Below are positions 5,967 to 53,952 of a stretch of DNA of 64,000 nt, one piece after another. The translations under genes were made by a program, and so were the position numbers. The stretch comes from Patescibacteria group bacterium. Its GTDB lineage: Bacteria > Patescibacteriota > Patescibacteriia > Patescibacteriales > JAQTRU01. Position 1 is the first letter of the stretch, and each line of letters begins with the position of its first letter. Location: contig JBAZPX010000003.1 in the NCBI GenBank assembly GCA_041645555.1, forward strand, positions 599-64,598, written 5' to 3'. The notes under the pieces are model-generated. The model did not search any database. It was not told the origin of the DNA and was given only the letters and a program-made list of their open reading frames with translations.

Positions 5967-6539
5967 TTATTTAATATCCTTCTCGTTAAATACTTGAGCA
6001 GTAAAAGTTTTTAGTTTAACATTAGGGTCGTTTTTATAGCAATCCGCGGGCAGTCCAGCTTTTTGGGAGCATAACTGGCCCAAGAATTCTTCTAAATCCC
6101 AGCCGGTTTCGGTCGCTACTTGGGGCAAGAATACGCCTCCACACCCTCCTTTTTCTACAATTACTCCGTGCTCGCTAAGTTTAATATTCTGCCAATTATC
6201 AATTTCTTTTGGCACAGACAAAACGCTTATTTCATAATCTAATTTATTTAATTCATTTTCTGCCACCGGGCTGAATCTATAATCCTCGCTGCAAGCCGCT
6301 ATAGCCATATCGCGCGCTACTTCCCAAAGAGGCTGGTCGGAAGGAATAATCTGGCCAATGCAGCCGCGTAGCTCTCCGGCTTTATGCAAAGTAACAAAAG
6401 CGCCCTCTTTCTTTTTCAGTCTCTCGTCTTTAATGTTAAATTCCGGAGTTTTACCTTCTCGCACATAACTTTCTACGGTTTGTCTGACAATATCCAATAA
6501 TTCTTTTTTTTGATTTTTATTTAATAGTTCCGAGCTCAT
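5967..6539 (-). CDS. AMMECR1 domain protein
   Basis: 190-aa ORF. GAFVTLHKAGELRGCIGQI is the characteristic AMMECR1 motif. Confidence 0.85.
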   Translation of the reverse strand: MSSELLNKNQKKELLDIVRQTVESYVREGKTPEFNIKDERLKKKEGAFVTLHKAGELRGCIGQIIPSDQPLWEVARDMAIAACSEDYRFSPVAENELNKLDYEISVLSVPKEIDNWQNIKLSEHGVIVEKGGCGGVFLPQVATETGWDLEEFLGQLCSQKAGLPADCYKNDPNVKLKTFTAQVFNEKDIK

Positions 6540-7345
6540 ATTTTTTTCAGAACATTTAAAATACTTTTATGAACCTGGCCGTTGCTGGCGGCTATGTCCC
6601 TGTTATCTAAGCTCCACCTTCGGCCGGAGAAATCCGTTACCTTTCCGCCGGCTTCTCTAACCAGTAATGCGCCGGCGGCTACGTCCCAGGGATTAGTTTC
6701 GGGAATGACTATTGTTTCCACCCGGCCGCAAGCGACATAAGCTAATTCTAAGGCGGCGCTGCCCAGTTGCCGGCAATCAAGGCCGTTTAGTTTTTGTTTG
6801 GTATAATATTTGATAGCTTTTTTTATAGCTTTGGTTGTGTGGCCGTGGCAGAAAGTATTTATAATTTTTCCTTTAGAAATTTTTGAGACTTTAATTTTTT
6901 TGTTATTTAAATAGGCGCCCTTATTTTTTTCCGCCCAGTATAATTCATTTAAAACCGGAATGAAAATTATGCCCAAGATAATTTCTTTATTGTAAGCCAA
7001 GGCAATGGAAATCGACCAAAGAGGATTACGCATGGAAAAATTAGTGGTGCCGTCTAGAGGGTCAATAATCCAGAGATAATCGGATTTATTTTTTGTCCAA
7101 CCGGCTTCTTCCGACAGTATCTGATGGGAGGGAAAACTTTTTTTTATGGCTTTAATTATAATTTTTTCCGCGTCTAGATCGGCTTTAGTTAAAATTTCAT
7201 GGCTAGATTTCAATTCTATTTTACTTCTGTCAAAATTGGCATATTCGCGCAGGAGAACCCTGCCTGCTTTTCGGGCGGCTTCTATGGCAATATTTTTTGT
7301 TTGGTCGTTCACCCCGTTAGAAATTTTGTTATTTTTTTCGCTCAT
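6536..7345 (-). CDS. inositol monophosphatase family protein (SuhB-like)
   Basis: 269-aa ORF with the WIIDPLDGTTNF metal-binding motif and a WDVAAG motif. Its first ~13 codons (MSEKNNKISNGVN) are encoded by the repeat element at 7307-7345. Confidence 0.9.
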   Translation of the reverse strand: MSEKNNKISNGVNDQTKNIAIEAARKAGRVLLREYANFDRSKIELKSSHEILTKADLDAEKIIIKAIKKSFPSHQILSEEAGWTKNKSDYLWIIDPLDGTTNFSMRNPLWSISIALAYNKEIILGIIFIPVLNELYWAEKNKGAYLNNKKIKVSKISKGKIINTFCHGHTTKAIKKAIKYYTKQKLNGLDCRQLGSAALELAYVACGRVETIVIPETNPWDVAAGALLVREAGGKVTDFSGRRWSLDNRDIAASNGQVHKSILNVLKKI

Positions 7346-7620
7346 AATAATATTTCAACCTGTTTTTTAAATATTTTTTCCCCATTCCGCTCTTTAGATA
7401 TTTCTCTCTGGCGAAAGCATCATATTTATTGCATGAAACTTCATAATATATTAAAATCAATGGTTTTCTCGATTTAGTGGCATAAACTTTGCCATCGTTA
7501 TGGTCTTTCAGCCTTTTGATTAGATTATTCGTGCAACCAGTATACCAAAGCTTATCTTTTAAACTTTCTATGACATAGACATACCAAATATTTTTATCCG
7601 AATTTCTAACGGGGTTCATA
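7307..7620 (-). mobile_element. GIY-YIG minielement bounded by inverted repeats of the ACCCCGTTAGAAAT family
   Basis: GTTCACCCCGTTAGAAAT (7307-7324) and ATTTCTAACGGGGTTCATA (7602-7620) bracket the GIY-YIG ORF. The right repeat contains the ORF start (ATGAACCCCGTTAGAAAT). The left end carries the start of the downstream suhB-like gene. Confidence 0.6.
7329..7619 (-). CDS. GIY-YIG nuclease family protein (UPF0213-like)
   Basis: 96-aa ORF. WYVYVIES...WYTGCTNNLIKRLKDHN fits the GIY-YIG motif. Confidence 0.85.
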   Translation of the reverse strand: MNPVRNSDKNIWYVYVIESLKDKLWYTGCTNNLIKRLKDHNDGKVYATKSRKPLILIYYEVSCNKYDAFAREKYLKSGMGKKYLKNRLKYYYERKK

Positions 7621-8107
7621 TTAACTCCAATAATTTTAATTCCAATTTATTGTTTCTCGTATTCCAGGTAGCAAAAGTGGCTTTTCCCCACATTCCTCCT
7701 AATTCTCCGGGATTGACCAATTTAACTTCATCAATTTCTTCCAAAGCGGGTTTGTGGCTGTGGCCGTAAAAAACTATATCGCAATGGCCGGAATGTAAGA
7801 CTTTATCAATAAAATGGGCTTCGTGGCAAAGGCCGACAATTTGGCCATCCAATTTGAATCGGCCGGTTTTACCGAAATAGTTTATGTTTTTAAATTTTTT
7901 TAATTCTTTTTCCCCGTATAACTCAATATTACCTTTTACCAGATAAATGGAATTTTTAAATTTTTTTCCCAGAGTATGGAGAGTTTCGCTATTAGTAAGG
8001 TCGCCCGCGCAGATAATTTTTTTAATTTTATTTTTTTTACTCCAATCCAGGAATTTATTTAAATTAACTAAATTATCGTGGATATCGGCGATGATGGCAA
8101 TAAGCAT
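7616..8107 (-). CDS. metallophosphoesterase (YfcE / MJ0936 family)
   Basis: 163-aa ORF with the motifs IADIHDN, GDL, GNIE and GHSH in the canonical order. Confidence 0.85.
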   Translation of the reverse strand: MLIAIIADIHDNLVNLNKFLDWSKKNKIKKIICAGDLTNSETLHTLGKKFKNSIYLVKGNIELYGEKELKKFKNINYFGKTGRFKLDGQIVGLCHEAHFIDKVLHSGHCDIVFYGHSHKPALEEIDEVKLVNPGELGGMWGKATFATWNTRNNKLELKLLELI

Positions 8108-8111
8108 AAAT

Positions 8112-9251
8112 TTAATTGGCGAAAAAATAATAAACCTCGTAAATTAAACCGAAGATAAATAAAGAAGAAAGCAGGATTATGGTTAGCTTGTTTATTTTAT
8201 TTTTTATTATAGACGGTTGTTCTCTTTTCTTTTTAACTTTTAAGAGGAGCCAGATATATAAAAGGCCGATTAAGCCGCCGGTAAAAGCGCCGGCCAGGCT
8301 TACTATTTTCGTTAAGTCGCGCAGCCCCAATAAATAAAGGAGGAGCGGGATAAAACAGGCCAGGGCCCAGGCGATATTTTTATTAATTTTAAAATCCCAC
8401 CAAAAAGTTTCCCGGACAGACTGGGCCACAACCAAAAAAGAAGTGATAATTGCCAGTAGCCCCAAGATTAAGGCGAAGACAATAATGCCGTCGGATAAAA
8501 CCGAGCGCAGGCCGACTAAAGTGTCGGGAGAAGTATTATTCCCGGTAATCCCGACAATAACGAAAGTAAAGACCAGCATCATCGCCACCGGGATGAAAGT
8601 TCCCCAAAAAATCGCGCTTTTGATATTTTCTCTTTTTTGCGCCAGGAGTTTGCAGACTGAAGGGATAGCCGCGCTGCCGCCGACAGCGAAGAAAATCGGG
8701 CCGTAAGGCAGGAAAACATCAGGCCAGGAAACAAGCTTAAAGTTATCAAAGTTAATATAGCCCCAGCCATGCCAGGAAAGCAGGCCGACTATTAAGATTA
8801 ACAAGCCGGTCATGGCTAATTCCATAGAAGCAATTAATTTTATGCCGGAAAGGACGATAAAGGCCTGTAAAAAGAAGAGAATCAAAGAGTAAATAAAAAT
8901 GTTTCCGCCGAAAACCGGATTTAATAATTCATGGAGAAAAATCCCGCCAACAATAATATAAGCGAGCAGGGCGCCATAGTCGCCGACCAGGCCGATGATA
9001 AGAGAAATGACTTTCCCCTTTTTACTAATATACTTTTCCGCATAACCGGGCAGCCGGTGTTTTTCCTCGGTCGATAAAATTATTTCCGCATAAATTTTAT
9101 GGAGAAAATACTGGACGGCGCCCAAAAGGGGGAGATAAACAAAAAGTAAAATAATGCCGGCCTTGTTAATGACAAAAGGAATAGAAAACATACCGACGCC
9201 GATAATGGTGCCGGCCAAAGTGGCGACAGCGTGAAAATAGTTTTTACTCAT
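8112..9251 (-). CDS. amino acid permease-like polytopic membrane transporter
   Basis: 379-aa ORF with roughly 11 hydrophobic segments. The N-terminus resembles aromatic/hydroxy amino acid permease family members. Confidence 0.65.
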   Translation of the reverse strand: MSKNYFHAVATLAGTIIGVGMFSIPFVINKAGIILLFVYLPLLGAVQYFLHKIYAEIILSTEEKHRLPGYAEKYISKKGKVISLIIGLVGDYGALLAYIIVGGIFLHELLNPVFGGNIFIYSLILFFLQAFIVLSGIKLIASMELAMTGLLILIVGLLSWHGWGYINFDNFKLVSWPDVFLPYGPIFFAVGGSAAIPSVCKLLAQKRENIKSAIFWGTFIPVAMMLVFTFVIVGITGNNTSPDTLVGLRSVLSDGIIVFALILGLLAIITSFLVVAQSVRETFWWDFKINKNIAWALACFIPLLLYLLGLRDLTKIVSLAGAFTGGLIGLLYIWLLLKVKKKREQPSIIKNKINKLTIILLSSLFIFGLIYEVYYFFAN

Positions 9252-10398
9252 AAATAATAAATTTTCCTTGTTTAATTTGCTCTTTGTAGTTTTCTTCTAA
9301 GCTTGACCAGCTAATTAAGTTGGCCAGAAATTGTTCCTTTTCTTTTTCCGCCATGAAGTCCGGCTGGGCCAATTTTGATTTTAAGGAATAGAGATAAAAT
9401 TCAGTTTTTTTATCCGCGATATTTACGCCGACAGCTAGTCCTTCCTGCGTATCAGAAGAAAAATATTGGTCAAAGATGAAATTACCCAAAGAATAAAAAA
9501 TCGGTTTATTTTTATAAATTTCAAGGCCTTGGACGACATGCGGGTGGTGGCCGATTATTAGATCGGCTCCGGCATCAACTAAAACATGCGCCGTTTCCTG
9601 CTGGATTTTATTAAATCGATGCTCGTATTCTGTCCCCCAATGGATATTAACGATAACGATATCAGTCTGCCCGGCTAAATTTTCTATCGCCTTCTTTATG
9701 GCCTCATCATCCAATTTTTTATAAACCATACTGAACCCGGCCAAGCCGATTTTTTTTCCGTTCGCCCTGTTAGAAATTCCGTCATTTCTAACGGGGTAAA
9801 TTTCAATAATTTTTCCGCTGCAATCTCCGCTTTGGCCGTCCTGGCAGCCGCTATAATAAAAACCTTGGGTTTCCAGGTTCTTTCTGGTTTCAATTATACC
9901 ATGCTCGCCCTGGTCGGCAAAATGGTTATTAGCCAGGTTAAAGAAATTAAAATTATATTTTTTCAGATTGGAAACTATCTCCGGAGAAAAAGAAAAATCA
10001 TAAGCCATCTCCGGTTTGTAATGCGCGCCTTCGTCCGCGACCGCTCCCTCAAGATTGCCGCTTATAAGGTCATAACCCCGGAAGAATTTTTTTTCGTCTA
10101 AATTTTCCAAAAGATAAGGAAAGCCCTTTTGGCTTATTTTTTCTCCCACATGGCGGTCAAGCATTATATCCCCGAGAAAAAGCGTTTTTAGGGACGAAGA
10201 GTTTTTCTCTGGCTCTATTTTCCCCGGGGCAAGAAAATAACTGTCTGTGTCTTTAATCTCCGAATAAAAAACTAGTATCAGGAAAAGACTGACAATAGAA
10301 ATTGCCGCCAAACTTAATATTTTTATTTGTTTTTCCGGGTCAATTTTTAAGAGGGGATTCACCCCGTTAGAAATTTTTTTCCCTTTTTCCCCCATCAT
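9244..10398 (-). CDS. CapA family (poly-gamma-glutamate capsule synthesis / metallophosphatase-like) protein
   Basis: 384-aa ORF with an N-terminal TM anchor. FLGDIMLDR, LANNHFADQG and IIGHHPHVVQG match the CapA/PGA_cap pattern. The N-terminus MMGEKGKKISNGVN is repeat-encoded. Confidence 0.85.
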   Translation of the reverse strand: MMGEKGKKISNGVNPLLKIDPEKQIKILSLAAISIVSLFLILVFYSEIKDTDSYFLAPGKIEPEKNSSSLKTLFLGDIMLDRHVGEKISQKGFPYLLENLDEKKFFRGYDLISGNLEGAVADEGAHYKPEMAYDFSFSPEIVSNLKKYNFNFFNLANNHFADQGEHGIIETRKNLETQGFYYSGCQDGQSGDCSGKIIEIYPVRNDGISNRANGKKIGLAGFSMVYKKLDDEAIKKAIENLAGQTDIVIVNIHWGTEYEHRFNKIQQETAHVLVDAGADLIIGHHPHVVQGLEIYKNKPIFYSLGNFIFDQYFSSDTQEGLAVGVNIADKKTEFYLYSLKSKLAQPDFMAEKEKEQFLANLISWSSLEENYKEQIKQGKFIIYE

Positions 10399-10486
10399 AA
10401 TATTTTACCTATTTTTAAAATATTTTTTTCCACGCTAAAAATTTCGTTATTCTTTTTATTTAACCAAATTTCTAACGGGGTTCATA
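10357..10486 (-). mobile_element. ORF-less (MITE-like) derivative of the GIY-YIG minielement
   Basis: ATTCACCCCGTTAGAAAT (10357-10374) and ATTTCTAACGGGGTTCATA (10468-10486) are only 93 nt apart. The GIY-YIG ORF is reduced to MNPVRNLVK*. The capA start codon lies inside the element. Confidence 0.55.
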
Positions 10487-10505
10487 GTCTAATTATAACG
10501 CAAAT

Positions 10506-14846: not shown

Positions 14847-14962
14847 TTGACTTTCAAGGGAAAATTAGGTAAATTTAAAGCATAAAAACAACTAACCCAA
14901 GGAGGAAAAACCCCAGTGAGATAAAGTAATGTCTCACGGGGTAAAGGAGGGTTAGTTTTTTT
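14847..14962 (+). promoter_or_regulatory. candidate promoter plus terminator-like leader hairpin upstream of the PurL-like gene
   Basis: TTGACT (14847-14852), 17 nt, TAAATT (14870-14875). Then a nested hairpin: AACTAACCC (14890-14898) pairs with GGGTTAGTT (14949-14957), enclosing CCCCAGTGAGA/TCTCACGGGG, followed by a T-run. Confidence 0.35.
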
Positions 14963-19557: not shown

Positions 19558-19831
19558 TGTTCCCTCCTTTTGGGTTGGCTGTTTGTTTTTAAAAAGGACG
19601 TGAAATTTTTGTGCGGTTTTCCGATACAAAAAACTGGCTCCCCTGTACGAGGAGCCAGTTTTCGTTTTCCCTAGTGAGTCTAACTTATATAGTTAAAGCA
19701 TCACAAAAAACTGATCTCCTCGTAAGACCATAAAACCAGAAACCGAAGAAATAAGTTTTTCGTAATGCCTTAGTCATAAAATATTGAGTTTACCCCGTTA
19801 GATAATATATTTAATGGGATTTTACTCTCTG
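19558..19831 (-). promoter_or_regulatory. ~270-nt leader containing an intrinsic-terminator hairpin (candidate attenuator, riboswitch or separate sRNA)
   Basis: The hairpin CTGGCTCC/GGAGCCAG (19634-19658) is followed by TTTTTTG on the minus strand. It lies between the promoter at 19838-19865 and the first small ORF. Confidence 0.35.
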
Positions 19832-24711: not shown

Positions 24712-24840
24712 ATTATAATTTTTTTAAAACCATTTCAACTATATCCCAAGCTCTGAAATTTATTTGTAGTTTGTACGGTTTAACCCTGGATTCCCGCCTG
24801 TGCGGGAATGACAGTAACGGGGGGCACTAACATTAAGACT

Positions 24841-34442: not shown

Positions 34443-34476
34443 AAAAAACAGTAATGATAAATCGATATGAAATTTG

Positions 34477-34550
34477 TGGGCTTAAGAGGGCTCGGACCTC
34501 TGACCTCCACGATGTCAACGTGGCGCTCTAACCAACTGAGCTATAAGCCC
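34477..34550 (-). tRNA. tRNA-Val(GAC)
   Basis: GGGCTTA TA GCTC AGTTGGTTA GAGC G CCACG TTGACAT CGTGG AGGTC AGAGG TCCGAGC CCTCT TAAGCCC A. Full cloverleaf with no encoded CCA. The T-loop reads TCC rather than the usual TTC. Confidence 0.85.
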
Positions 34551-34803
34551 AAGTATTTATAATGTTATTTATGACTTTTTTTAGGTATCTTCTCCCGGGC
34601 GCAGTTTTTAATTCCTTTTCCCTGTTTCTCGCTGATTTCTCATCAGGATAAAATTCTAAATATATAGGAATCCAAGGTTTATATAATTTTGTTGCCTCAA
34701 CTTCGCCTTTATTATGTTGTGTGAATCTGTGTTTAAAATTATTGGTACTGCCGGTGTATGTTTTGTTTTTATGTTTACTATATATTATATATACTATCCA
34801 CAT
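34528..34803 (-). CDS. GIY-YIG nuclease family protein inserted between tRNA sequences
   Basis: 91-aa ORF. WIVYIIYSKHKNKTYTGSTNNFKHRFTQHN is the GIY-YIG motif. Its last 23 nt overlap the 5' part of tRNA-Val. Confidence 0.85.
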   Translation of the reverse strand: MWIVYIIYSKHKNKTYTGSTNNFKHRFTQHNKGEVEATKLYKPWIPIYLEFYPDEKSARNREKELKTAPGRRYLKKVINNIINTWAYSSVG

Positions 34804-34807
34804 AATA

Positions 34808-34879
34808 CTTGGCGCTCTAACCCGCCTCGCTGAAGCCGAGCTTCAGCTCGGCGAGGCGGGCCAACTGAGCTATAAACCC
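34808..34879 (-). pseudogene. 5' fragment of a Val-like tRNA gene with a 40-nt GC hairpin inserted in the D-loop
   Basis: GGGTTTATAGCTCAGTTGG [CCCGCCTCGC...GCGAGGCGGG, 34860-34821] TTAGAGCGCCAAG, then 4 nt, then the GIY-YIG ATG. It matches positions 1-33 of the intact tRNA-Val at 31 of 33. No 3' half is present. Confidence 0.6.
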
Positions 34880-35529: not shown

Positions 35530-35563
35530 AATATTTAGAATTCAGAAATCGTCAATTTGTATG

Positions 35564-35637
35564 TGCGCTTGGATGGACTTGAACCATCGACCCCCGCTTT
35601 ATAAGAGCGGTGCTCTAACCAACTGAGCTACAAGCGC
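35564..35637 (-). tRNA. tRNA-Ile(UAU)
   Basis: GCGCTTG TA GCTC AGTTGGTTA GAGC A CCGCT CTTATAA AGCGG GGGTC GATGG TTCAAGT CCATC CAAGCGC A. The anticodon reads TAT. Confidence 0.8.
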
Positions 35638-35660: not shown

Positions 35661-35695
35661 ACCCCGTCAGAAATCCCCGTCCTTTCTGACGGGGT
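35661..35695. repeat. hairpin variant of the ACCCCGTTAGAAAT repeat
   Basis: ACCCCGTCAGAAAT (35661-35674) and CTTTCTGACGGGGT (35682-35695) form a 13-bp stem just upstream of tRNA-Ile on the minus strand. Confidence 0.6.
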
Positions 35696-37595: not shown

Positions 37596-37786
37596 TATGA
37601 ACCCCGTTAGAAATCTAGCTGTAAATAAACGGAGGGGTATCAGCTGAGGTTTCGTGCTAAAGGCAAGTGGAGGGCCGTCTTGGCGGGAAATATCAAAATC
37701 AATTACATATTCTTATGGGAGAAAAAAATATCAAAATTTCTAACCCCGTTAGAAATAAATTTCTAAGCGGGGCTAACGGGGTGAAC
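37596..37786 (+). mobile_element. ORF-less derivative of the GIY-YIG minielement carrying the valS start codon
   Basis: TATGAACCCCGTTAGAAAT (37596-37614) ... ATTTCTAACCCCGTTAGAAATAAATTTCTAAGCGGGGCTAACGGGGTGAAC (37736-37786). The remnant ORF is MNPVRNLAVNKRRGIS*. The valS ATG at 37715 lies inside the element. Confidence 0.55.
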
Positions 37787-45951: not shown

Positions 45952-45982
45952 ACCCCATTAGAAATTCCGTTTCTAACGGGGC
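45952..45982. repeat. hairpin form of the ACCCCGTTAGAAAT repeat, 9 nt upstream of the next start codon
   Basis: ACCCCATTAGAAAT tcc GTTTCTAACGGGGC, then GAGTATATT ATG. Confidence 0.65.
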
Positions 45983-52795: not shown

Positions 52796-53899
52796 TTACC
52801 TAGCTAAAATATAGTACATGCCGCCTAAATTTTTTATCATGCCTTTCATTTCCATTATGACCAGTGTACTATTTGCCGTCGCGGTGTCAAGCCCGGAAGC
52901 GCGGACAAGCTCGTCAATATGAATTGGCTCAAAAGAAAGAAGGGAAATTATTTTTTTCTCATTTTCCCCCTCCGGCATTATGATTTTAGCGCTGATGTAG
53001 GCGGTGGCCTGGGTTAAATTTAAGGTTTCAATAATGTCAGAGGCGCTGGTAACGACTTTTGCCCCTTCTTTAATAAGCTTATTGGGTCCGGCCGAAGCGG
53101 GCGAATAGATACTGCCGGGTACGGCAAAGACTTCGCGATTTTGCTCTAAGGCGTAAGAGGCCGTGATTAAAGCCCCGGATTTTTCCCCGGCTTCTATAAC
53201 TAAGGTGCCAAGGCAGAGGCCGGAAATAAGGCGGTTGCGTTGGGGGAAATTATGCCGCAACGGCGGAGTGCCAAGAGGCAGTTCCGAAATTACGGCGCCG
53301 TCAGCAGCGATAATTTTATCCGCCAGGTAGCGGTTCTGCGAAGGGTAAAGATTTTGCCTGTCCAGGCCCGAACCCAAAACGGCAATAGTTTTTCCTTTAG
53401 CCGCTAAAGTCGCCGAATGGGCTAAAGAGTCAATGCCCAAAGCCAGGCCGCTAATAATTGTTAAGCCGTTTCCGACTAATTCCTTTACAATATAATCGGT
53501 TATCTGCTGCCCGTAGCTAGTAAATTTTCTCGTTCCGACTACGGCTAAAGTAAAATCATTTTTTAAATCAAGTTTTCCTTTGTAGTATATAAGAGGAGGG
53601 GGGTTGTAAATTTCCCCTAAGAGGGCGGGATAGGATTTATCCGCAATCATCATGACTTTTATGTCTTCTTCAACCAATCTGGCGGCTAACCGGTCAGGGT
53701 CGATTTCCCTTCTGGCCGCGATAAATTCTTCGGCGATATTTTCTTCAAGGCCGGCTTTTAGAAGTTCCGGAAGACCGGCTCGGAAGGCGTTTTTTAAACC
53801 GGCGTCCCGGGGGTAAAAATATTTCAATAGTTTTTTAAACCGGATTGGCCCGAATTTCTGGAAATTATTTAAAGCCACCCAGTATTTCAAGTTTTCCAT
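52796..53899 (-). CDS. dprA: DNA processing protein DprA (Smf)
   Basis: 367-aa ORF. Rossmann-like core GLALGIDSLAHSATLAAKGKTIAVLGSGLD, FPQRNRLISGL, and a C-terminal winged-helix region. Confidence 0.9.
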   Translation of the reverse strand: MENLKYWVALNNFQKFGPIRFKKLLKYFYPRDAGLKNAFRAGLPELLKAGLEENIAEEFIAARREIDPDRLAARLVEEDIKVMMIADKSYPALLGEIYNPPPLIYYKGKLDLKNDFTLAVVGTRKFTSYGQQITDYIVKELVGNGLTIISGLALGIDSLAHSATLAAKGKTIAVLGSGLDRQNLYPSQNRYLADKIIAADGAVISELPLGTPPLRHNFPQRNRLISGLCLGTLVIEAGEKSGALITASYALEQNREVFAVPGSIYSPASAGPNKLIKEGAKVVTSASDIIETLNLTQATAYISAKIIMPEGENEKKIISLLSFEPIHIDELVRASGLDTATANSTLVIMEMKGMIKNLGGMYYILAR

Positions 53900-53912: not shown

Positions 53913-53952
53913 GCCCCGTTAGAAATTTTAATTTTTAAATTTCTAATGGGGT
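53913..53952. repeat. inverted pair of the ACCCCGTTAGAAAT repeat in the dprA 5' UTR
   Basis: GCCCCGTTAGAAAT (53913-53926) and ATTTCTAATGGGGT (53939-53952). On the minus strand, ATTTCTAACGGGGCGAG lies 13 nt before the dprA ATG. Confidence 0.65.

Follow-up and report, generated by a model that had tools for sequence, protein, structure and literature searches.

The question raised by the locus described here is whether a small nuclease gene lying between inverted repeats is a stand-alone housekeeping gene or the body of a mobile, or formerly mobile, minielement, as was proposed in a preliminary description of the same sequence. The locus, a 314-bp unit with a single GIY-YIG open reading frame (ORF), is situated in a 64,000-nt stretch of a Patescibacteria group bacterium (assembly GCA_041645555.1, contig JBAZPX010000003.1, positions 599 to 64,598), which is referred to below as the window, has a low GC content (41%) and finds its relatives among metagenome assemblies of Patescibacteria (candidate phyla radiation, CPR). 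Our reading, to which we assign a probability of roughly 0.6, is that the unit represents an intact, autonomous-type copy of a small family of selfish elements of Patescibacteria, the sole product of which would be a single-domain GIY-YIG nuclease of about 90 amino acids, its gene filling the loop of a hairpin made by the element ends.

The repeat itself can be read directly. On the forward strand ACCCCGTTAGAAAT occupies positions 7311-7324 and its exact reverse complement positions 7602-7615, giving a perfect 14-bp inverted repeat with a span of 305 bp between its outer ends (7311-7615), and in the fold of the whole unit as single-stranded DNA (ssDNA) the two ends are paired in both the minimum free energy and the centroid structure. 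The longer ends delineated initially (7307-7324 and 7602-7620) hold as inverted copies for these 14 bp, but not for the outermost GTTC (7307-7310) and TCAT (7616-7619), which are not complementary. In gene orientation the bases outside the arms form a direct repeat, ATGAAC/CCCG...CGGGG/TGAAC (slashes mark junctions here and below), with the repeated TGAA at 7618-7615 and 7311-7308, and the whole unit (7308-7619, minus strand) is read as A-TGAA, 5′ arm, GIY-YIG ORF, 3′ arm, TGAA-C.

Both arms and both flanks are involved in coding. The nuclease ORF (7329-7619, minus strand, 96 amino acids, single domain) starts in the right end of the unit, as had been noticed, with the peptide MNPVRN, in which codons 2-6 (NPVRN) correspond to the 5′ arm (7602-7615, minus strand; ACCCCGTTAGAAAT). 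Its ATG (7619-7617) belongs to an ATGA junction (7616-7619, minus strand), where it shares bases with the stop codon, TGA, of the metallophosphoesterase gene located upstream (7616-8107). The 3′ arm (7311-7324, minus strand; ATTTCTAACGGGGT in gene orientation) is located 3′ of the nuclease stop and, in the frame of the following gene, is read as ISNGV. That gene (6536-7312, minus strand) encodes an inositol-monophosphatase, or SuhB-like protein (Pfam PF00459, E=1.7e-69), and the arm is included in its long ORF, so that the annotated N-terminus, MSEKNNKISNGVN, is encoded by the element end. Two codons may open this gene: GTG at 7310-7312 (minus strand), composed of the last two arm bases and the first flank base and standing in place of the host's original ATG, and an internal, outward-reading ATG at 7343-7345 (minus strand), which lies within the last part of the nuclease ORF, at a distance of 17 nt from the stop, and whose reading frame continues across the 3′ arm into the SuhB-like gene, giving the leader MSEKNNKISNGV. 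Judged from the sequence, either could serve; at related loci the codon in the position equivalent to GTG opens canonical N-termini.

This arrangement shows an element inserted at a host start codon, with ATGAA as the target and TGAA now on both sides. The ATG of the host has become the start codon of the nuclease, with the 5′ arm supplying the codons NPVR, and a new ATG or GTG is formed for the host from the repeated TGAA and the base with which the 3′ arm ends (A or G). The commonest subfamily uses this TGA also as the nuclease stop; in the subfamily of the window the nuclease stops 18 nt earlier, and the internal ATG adds a leader of about 12 amino acids to the host protein. Stubs, lone ends and bare hairpins are truncated derivatives retaining the ends.

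Comparison with relatives gives exact boundaries to the insertion. In two related loci (L083 and L084) with the same upstream gene and a SuhB-like protein 81% identical to that of the window, the site is empty and reads ...CTGGAACTAATATGACGAAAAAATTT, with the junction ...CTAATATGACGAAAA; in the window the corresponding sequence is ...TTGGAGTTAATATGA, followed by the insert (ACCCCG...305 bp...CGGGGT) and GAACGACC, with the left junction ...TTAATATGA. The same ATGA is present in the empty site of L083, and the ATGA at 7616-7619 is thus the original stop/start junction of the host. More distant relatives (L085-L088 and L099) likewise have no insert here. A second empty allele is found upstream of valS, where the window carries a stub of the element between ATGA and GTGAACAAAGATCTGCCAAAAGC (ATGAACCCCG...stub...GGGGTGAACAAAGATCTGCCAAAAGC) and another relative (L039; neighbouring gene 69% and valyl-tRNA synthetase 53% identical) reads ATGAAGCAAGAATTGCCAAAAGC. 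The third site is the start of a LytR gene, for which a close relative is available (L142, with LytR 88.5% identical at the amino acid and 85.5% at the DNA level and with flanking synteny). There L142 carries a full GIY-YIG element, its DNA 87.6% identical to 7308-7622 of the window, whereas in the window only about 33 nt of recognisable 3′-terminal element sequence are left, inside 58960-59004, and the ORF of LytR begins with the very ATG that L142 uses for its nuclease. Therefore truncated copies arise by deletion of full ones. Presence or absence at orthologous loci had been named beforehand as a test of mobility, and it gave a positive answer three times, since occupancy differs at the SuhB, valS and LytR sites; the proposal of a mobile or formerly mobile nuclease minielement is supported. 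GIY-YIG genes with 83-88% identity to the focal one stand, besides, in front of five host genes of different kinds: a SuhB-like gene, a gene for a glycosyltransferase, LytR, one with an ADK domain and one of 625 codons.

Family-wide comparisons were made on the best 80 of 494 loci by protein similarity, taken from species-representative genomes (1.4 Mb in total), mostly of Patescibacteria, with some labelled Omnitrophota, Elusimicrobiota, Planctomycetota, Syntrophales, Gracilimonas and Arenicellales. The arm core accompanies 71 of the 82 GIY-YIG matches in these loci, with CCGTTAGA close to the 5′ and TCTAACGG close to the 3′ end; about 70 of the loci have the gene bracketed by this core (CCCGTTAGA...TCTAACGGG), and the density of the core 9-mer reaches 0.17-0.20 per kb against 0.008 expected. 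Among more distant representatives of 50%-identity clusters only a minority keep the arm signatures, and the arrangement thus marks a subclade. Typical ends are ...ATGA/ATCCCGTTAGAG at the 5′ side and CTCTAACGGGAT/GA... at the 3′ side: among the 71 arm-bearing cases the right flank is GA in 34, and in 23 loci it is combined with ATGA on the left. At the 3′ junction 21 loci have the codon ATG and 10 have GTG, and in about 25 the TGA stop of the nuclease consists of the last T of the element and the flanking GA and overlaps the rebuilt start codon.

If all arm pairs in the 1.4 Mb are considered, 44 elements, of which 32 are full and 12 mini, combine ATGR at the left flank with RTGR at the right one, and the 38 proteins of at least 60 amino acids encoded downstream of them fall into 34 unrelated clusters. 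Counted from the junction codon these have textbook N-termini, such as MKGIILAGGSGTRL (RfbA), MKLIIGLGNPG (Pth), MKRTYQP (L34), MKLLIVESPSKAK (TopA) and MKIQIITLFPEMF (TrmD); NusA, iPGM and RNase H are further examples. In 51 of 70 elements a co-oriented ORF of 80 codons or more begins no more than 25 nt from the 3′ arm, compared with 0.32 for random positions. Direct repeats TGAA or ATGA flank most copies. In one host gene occupied in three loci the repeat follows the host, being ATGGA/GTGGA in L005 versus ATGAA/GTGAA in L004 and L006, and ATGAGT stands on both flanks in L010 and L032; L005, L010 and L032 are thus host-matched, and four other non-AA cases are mismatched. Target duplication of about 4 bp (TGAR) is likely on the basis of these flanks, with an ambiguous boundary between repeat and arm; a model with duplication of 2 bp (GA) fits more poorly than the 4-bp one (TGAA/TGAG/TGGA).

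The subfamily to which the window belongs (together with L004-L006 and L140-L144, L142 among them) deviates in the position of the nuclease stop, which precedes the 3′ arm's end by 15-18 nt, and has a conserved ATG 17-20 nt upstream of this stop, from which the reading frame runs on across the arm and into the host gene. In L142 this internal ATG must be the start of the host gene, because the junction codon is GTA. The leader M.EK..KISNGVN also heads the PGA_cap, valS and LytR_cpsA_psr genes of the window, each at an element end, and the in-frame reading is kept in all four window copies.

Besides the focal unit, the window contains an excess of the ends: 17 occurrences of the 14-mer with at most two mismatches, eight of them exact, against 0.70 expected (100 shuffles, of which none reached 17 and the largest gave 3). 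As had been stated, this pair of ends is found again at two places, its order unchanged. The copy at the PGA_cap start (10357-10486, minus strand) has its arms at 10361-10374 and 10468-10481, ATGA at the 5′ and GTGAAT at the 3′ flank and a short ORF, MNPVRNLVK*, and retains 77 nt and 40 nt of full-element sequence within 10356-10498. The copy at the valS start (37597-37785, plus strand) begins with ATGAACCCCGTTAGAAAT, spans 37601-37782 between arm ends, and has a GTGAAC junction, an in-frame ATG at 37715 and the short ORF MNPVRNLAVNKRRGIS*; 38 nt of full-element sequence are kept at 37707-37744. Both were taken earlier for deletion derivatives, and the sequence retained in each, together with the full and remnant alleles at LytR, bears this out. 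In the valS copy the 3′ arm (37736-37782) is interrupted by 33 nt (37745-37777, plus strand; ATTTCTAAC / CCCGTTAGAAATAAATTTCTAAGCGGGGCTAAC / GGGGTGAAC), made of a 28-nt hairpin of the same arm sequence and a second CTAAC, so that CTAAC stands on either side of the hairpin; this may be either a nested insertion or a local template-switch duplication, and the host frame is intact despite it. The remnant at the LytR_cpsA_psr start (58960-59004, minus strand) contains about 33 nt of element sequence, from GAAAAAAATAAC up to where a lone 3′ arm (58964-58977) finishes, the rest of its 45 nt being the new start-codon region of the gene.

Four further copies are perfect hairpins made of the same arms with short loops, with DNA fold z-scores from -3.8 to -8.4: at 9764-9797, in frame within the PGA_cap coding sequence (YPVRNDGISNRA); at 35661-35695, intergenic and next to tRNA-Ile, with the variant arms ACCCCGTCAGAAAT; at 45952-45982, between two co-directional genes and 10 nt before an ATG; and at 53913-53952, 14 nt upstream of the start of the gene 52796-53899 (minus strand). 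The first of them lies inside the PGA_cap domain of the coding sequence 9244-10398 (minus strand) and is kept at the orthologous position of L083 (YPVRNDEISNGA), and a distant PGA_cap homologue (L058, 33% identical) shows a gap of 5 amino acids at this place. Degenerate hairpins within 14900-14945 (arms ACCCCAGTGAGAT...ATGTCTCACGGGGT, followed by AAGGAGG) and at 19792-19820 (arms ACCCCGTTAGATAA...TTTAATGGGAT) are probably decayed copies.

Mini-elements in other loci mostly measure 92-117 bp between arm cores (65-142 bp in total range) and have the ends and the ATGAA flanks in common while their interiors are unrelated, a pattern which looks like the behaviour of MITEs (miniature inverted-repeat transposable elements). 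A 60-bp mini-element of L083 sits at another ATGA junction, and its GTG opens a perfect lipoprotein signal peptide, KKYLFLLILILLLSSC. Several clustered copies were also observed: a full element directly followed by a 98-bp mini-element before an rfbA-like gene (L034, 10001-10383), two adjacent GIY-YIG ORFs (L062, 125-681), two copies 2 kb apart (L060, 3659-6235), and copies on two contigs of the Elusimicrobiota single-cell genome AM-326-M04 (L028 and L042).

The protein itself is a minimal one. It matches GIY-YIG PF01541 (E=2.8e-14) over residues 12-81, and its AlphaFold2 model (pLDDT 88) adopts the compact GIY-YIG fold, with low confidence (mean pLDDT 52) for residues 1-10, which contain the arm-encoded peptide. 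The nearest solved structures found by Foldseek are UPF0213 BH0048 and Slx1, I-TevI appearing only at E=2.3. Homologues are numerous: 2444 at E<=1e-5 among 90% clusters, and 6138 at E<=1e-3 or 758 at E<=1e-10 among 1.84 billion representatives of 50%-identity clusters. Most close homologues begin with M(N/S/D)PVR and many finish with ...FLSLTG*, peptides which are the arms in translation. The ratio of non-synonymous to synonymous substitution rates (dN/dS), 0.05-0.24, indicates purifying selection on the nuclease. No match for it was obtained in NCBIfam, PADLOC or PHROGs, and a tblastn search against plasmids returned only B. subtilis yazA and an Arsenophonus gene, giving no bridge to known Ssn proteins. 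As for the hallmarks of insertion sequences and MITEs, terminal inverted repeats of 14-16 bp are conserved throughout the family, and occupied and empty alleles exist (SuhB and valS, with full and remnant alleles at LytR); the GIY-YIG gene is the only ORF of the unit, and no known transposase class (DDE, HUH, serine or tyrosine) was detected by Pfam, PHROGs, PADLOC or NCBIfam.

The closest described counterpart is the Ssn system, comprising single-domain GIY-YIG proteins of about 94 amino acids which bind a hairpin repeat (NTS/SRM) only as ssDNA and cleave ssDNA alone, at a specific site located a few nucleotides to the 5′ side of the hairpin, leaving double-stranded DNA and RNA uncut (Chenal et al., Nat Commun 2025, PMC11893778). 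The sequence of the loop is irrelevant for recognition, and loop extensions or stem halves placed on separate oligonucleotides are tolerated; the ssn gene is often flanked by repeats, and the NTS-ssnA-NTS arrangement was likened to an insertion sequence or a unit of repetitive extragenic palindromes (REPs) and their associated tyrosine transposases (RAYTs) (PMC11893778). Since Ssn accepts any loop and split stems, a gene placed in the loop is compatible with this mode of recognition. The elements described here share with Ssn/SRM the small single-domain protein (96 amino acids), the hairpin-forming inverted repeats around its gene and the dispersal of these repeats, and the ends of canonical SRMs read on the opposite strand (CTGGAT/TCCCGC...GCGGGA/ATGACA) resemble those found here (ATGAAT/CCCG...CGGG/ATGAA). 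They differ in that one arm stands on each side and pairs across the gene, whereas in SRM a complete hairpin is present on both sides, and in that the stems are of 13-16 bp and of different sequence. The SRM pattern HGTCWYN(0-2)YYVSBRHN(0-5)WNVSBRGN(0-2)RNCYNB matches none of the focal hairpins, and its five matches in the 1.4 Mb of related loci do not adjoin this GIY-YIG family. Compared with Ssn by its published description, the element thus resembles an Ssn/SRM unit in its way of working and is probably a divergent relative.

By analogy with Ssn, the nuclease would recognise its own paired arms as a hairpin in ssDNA and would nick the strand that reads TTCA(C/T)CCCG, a few nucleotides to the 5′ side of this hairpin. 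Combined with host repair, replication or ligation this activity might result in excision, copying or spread of full and mini copies; as the enzyme is hydrolytic, the joining step would have to be supplied by host functions. Because the two arms would pair in mRNA as well, translation of the host gene may be coupled to that of the nuclease ORF.

Other known systems resemble the element in some respects only. Like REP/RAYT units (REPtrons) and IS200/IS605, it has a small gene framed by a hairpin repeat in inverted orientation, with copies dispersed over the genome, recognition of the hairpin in single-stranded form is presumed, and domestication is debated for both; the difference is that here the only protein is a hydrolytic GIY-YIG nuclease. 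RAYT and IS200/IS605 enzymes are HUH/Y1 transposases acting through covalent intermediates, each REP is a complete hairpin, and we know of no start-codon targeting in either group. Rickettsia palindromic elements and MITEs of the Correia type are comparable as short palindromic protein-free copies found in frame in coding sequences, examples of which here are the hairpin 9764-9797, the N-terminal leaders and the mini-element of L083. To our knowledge, neither the Rickettsia nor the Correia elements have a full-length nuclease-encoding copy with the same ends, or are tied to start codons. With the GIY-YIG homing genes of T4-like phages (seg, mob and I-TevI) the element has in common a selfish GIY-YIG gene located between host genes. 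Such phage genes are often translationally coupled or repressed by hairpins; they have products with DNA-binding domains and invade a single cognate site through the repair of double-strand breaks, and we know of none with terminal inverted repeats or mini-derivatives. The protein described here, by comparison, is a single domain of 96 amino acids with no DNA-binding domain joined.

Several points weigh against the interpretation of the unit as a mobile element. Between even the closest relatives synonymous sites have reached saturation (dS about 1 or more), and the copies are old: near-identical ones were not found and recent movement is undocumented. Same-gene insertions are stably inherited across species (L004/5/6, L010/14 and L045/47). 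About half of the copies bearing inverted repeats have a 5′ flank other than ATGA, with the arm placed in the leader upstream of the ATG, still 0-20 nt from the host start. The covariation of flanks with hosts is imperfect, three independent matches among the non-AA cases being set against four mismatches, and insertions might be confined to true start codons through selection acting afterwards and not through recognition of ATGAA as a target. The loci were picked by protein similarity, and organism labels of metagenome-assembled genomes are unreliable. Finally, strand transfer is beyond a hydrolytic GIY-YIG nuclease acting alone. The main uncertainty concerns continued mobility and the way in which a bare GIY-YIG nuclease could move the element.

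Age and stable inheritance of the insertions would be natural for a domesticated host system of Ssn type, which might, for example, restrict or modulate incoming ssDNA in these competence-dependent bacteria, with the insertions ancient, fixed and immobile. Strong purifying selection at saturated synonymous sites, the inheritance of the same sites across species and the presence of one intact copy beside decayed ones in a window are in line with it, and so is the homologous arrangement in Neisseria, which modulates transformation (PMC11893778). It accords poorly with the many independent sites in front of 34 host gene families, with close relatives (83-88% identity) residing at five different genes, with filled, empty and remnant alleles among near relatives, and with mini-derivatives of unrelated interior sharing exact ends and ATGAA flanks, and we regard it as unlikely, albeit deserving serious attention. 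Evidence from insertion sites and alleles implies, therefore, that a past mobile phase is required under domestication as well.

A selfish element could alternatively be a classical free-standing homing endonuclease gene, cutting the empty double-stranded allele of the same gene, for example the CTAATATGACGAAAA junction, and being copied in by recombinational repair. GIY-YIG enzymes do include homing endonucleases, and the occupation of the same host gene in L004, L005 and L006, with flanks matching the second codon of each host, agrees with this; the bare 96-residue catalytic domain devoid of a DNA-binding module and the weak similarity to I-TevI (Foldseek E=2.3) versus UPF0213 and Slx1 speak otherwise, and the terminal inverted repeats, flanking direct repeats, dozens of unrelated targets and protein-free mini copies are left unexplained, so that we attach little credence to it. 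The least probable reading is that the arms are a regulatory or structural signal, such as a terminator, an operator or a REP-like stabiliser of mRNA, flanking a housekeeping GIY-YIG gene by chance. Short hairpins are indeed found in intergenic regions close to gene starts, and that at 45952-45982 was scored as terminator-like; it is the only one called as an intrinsic terminator, on the strand opposite to the flanking genes, the other hairpins being uncalled. Arms are, however, situated within coding sequences and translated, they are tied to one gene family across distant bacterial lineages, and at the gathering threshold Rfam recognised three tRNAs only in the window and nothing in the arms; insertion polymorphism with exact boundaries largely refutes a signal of this kind.

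The window holds some other features of related kind. A second GIY-YIG gene (34531-34803, within 34476-34878, minus strand) encodes a protein 47% identical to the focal one (E=3e-19) and has no CCCGTTAGA arms. On one side of it lies an incomplete copy of the tRNA-Val 5′ half, whose D-loop is broken by a GC-rich hairpin of 40 nt, and on the other the intact tRNA-Val(GAC) at 34476-34550, the 5′ end of which is overlapped by the last codons of the ORF; this looks like a different insertion, one that duplicated the 5′ half of the tRNA. The sole match to the SRM pattern in the window (0.1 expected) is a canonical Neisseria-type NTS/SRM hairpin, TGTCATTCCCGCACAGGCGGGAATCCAG, at 24786-24813 (minus strand), a short way upstream of argS, and the longest argS ORF begins at the ATG that flanks the hairpin. 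In the 1.4 Mb of related loci there are four more canonical SRMs of similar type, and no GIY-YIG gene adjoins any of them. The idea that canonical SRMs also reside on true start codons was rejected, ORFs from their ATG being only 8-21 codons long, except upstream of argS in the window. About 25 nt downstream of the variant hairpin 35661-35695 lies tRNA-Ile (35563-35637, minus strand) with the anticodon UAU, which is uncommon in bacteria, most of them reading AUA codons with modified CAU.

A literature search for start-codon-targeting GIY-YIG elements and for MITEs in Patescibacteria gave only the Ssn paper (PMC11893778); the coverage of this search was incomplete and an earlier description is possible. 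That paper is silent on start-codon insertion, target duplication, start rebuilding, empty sites and Patescibacteria. Relative to it and to the literature searched, the layout with the gene in the loop, insertion at start codons with rebuilding of the host start, borrowing of codons, empty and remnant sites and occurrence in Patescibacteria are apparently new. That all this amounts to an undescribed class of autonomous bacterial mobile elements, with an Ssn-like GIY-YIG single-strand nuclease, its gene placed in the loop of the very hairpin that it recognises, as the only enzyme, targeting of start codons (ATGAA), borrowed start and stop, a rebuilt host ATG or GTG and protein-free mini-copies readable in frame, we suggest only tentatively and at somewhat less than even odds. 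If true, this would be the first GIY-YIG-only DNA transposon and would explain how Ssn-associated hairpin repeats multiply.

The question left by the 2025 work on Ssn was how the hairpin repeats spread and whether the unit of gene and repeats is, or was, mobile. Copies from Patescibacteria supply exact boundaries, empty sites, products of decay in situ and a consistent target, the start codon, by which this question becomes testable. For annotation it means that many Patescibacteria proteins in databases will carry arm-encoded leaders (MNPVR... and ...KISNGV) and ...SLTG tails, spurious or real. For the parasite, the layout would be an unusually economical route to expression without killing an essential gene: the initiation signals of the host are used, the stop is made by target duplication, and the start codon of the host is rebuilt.

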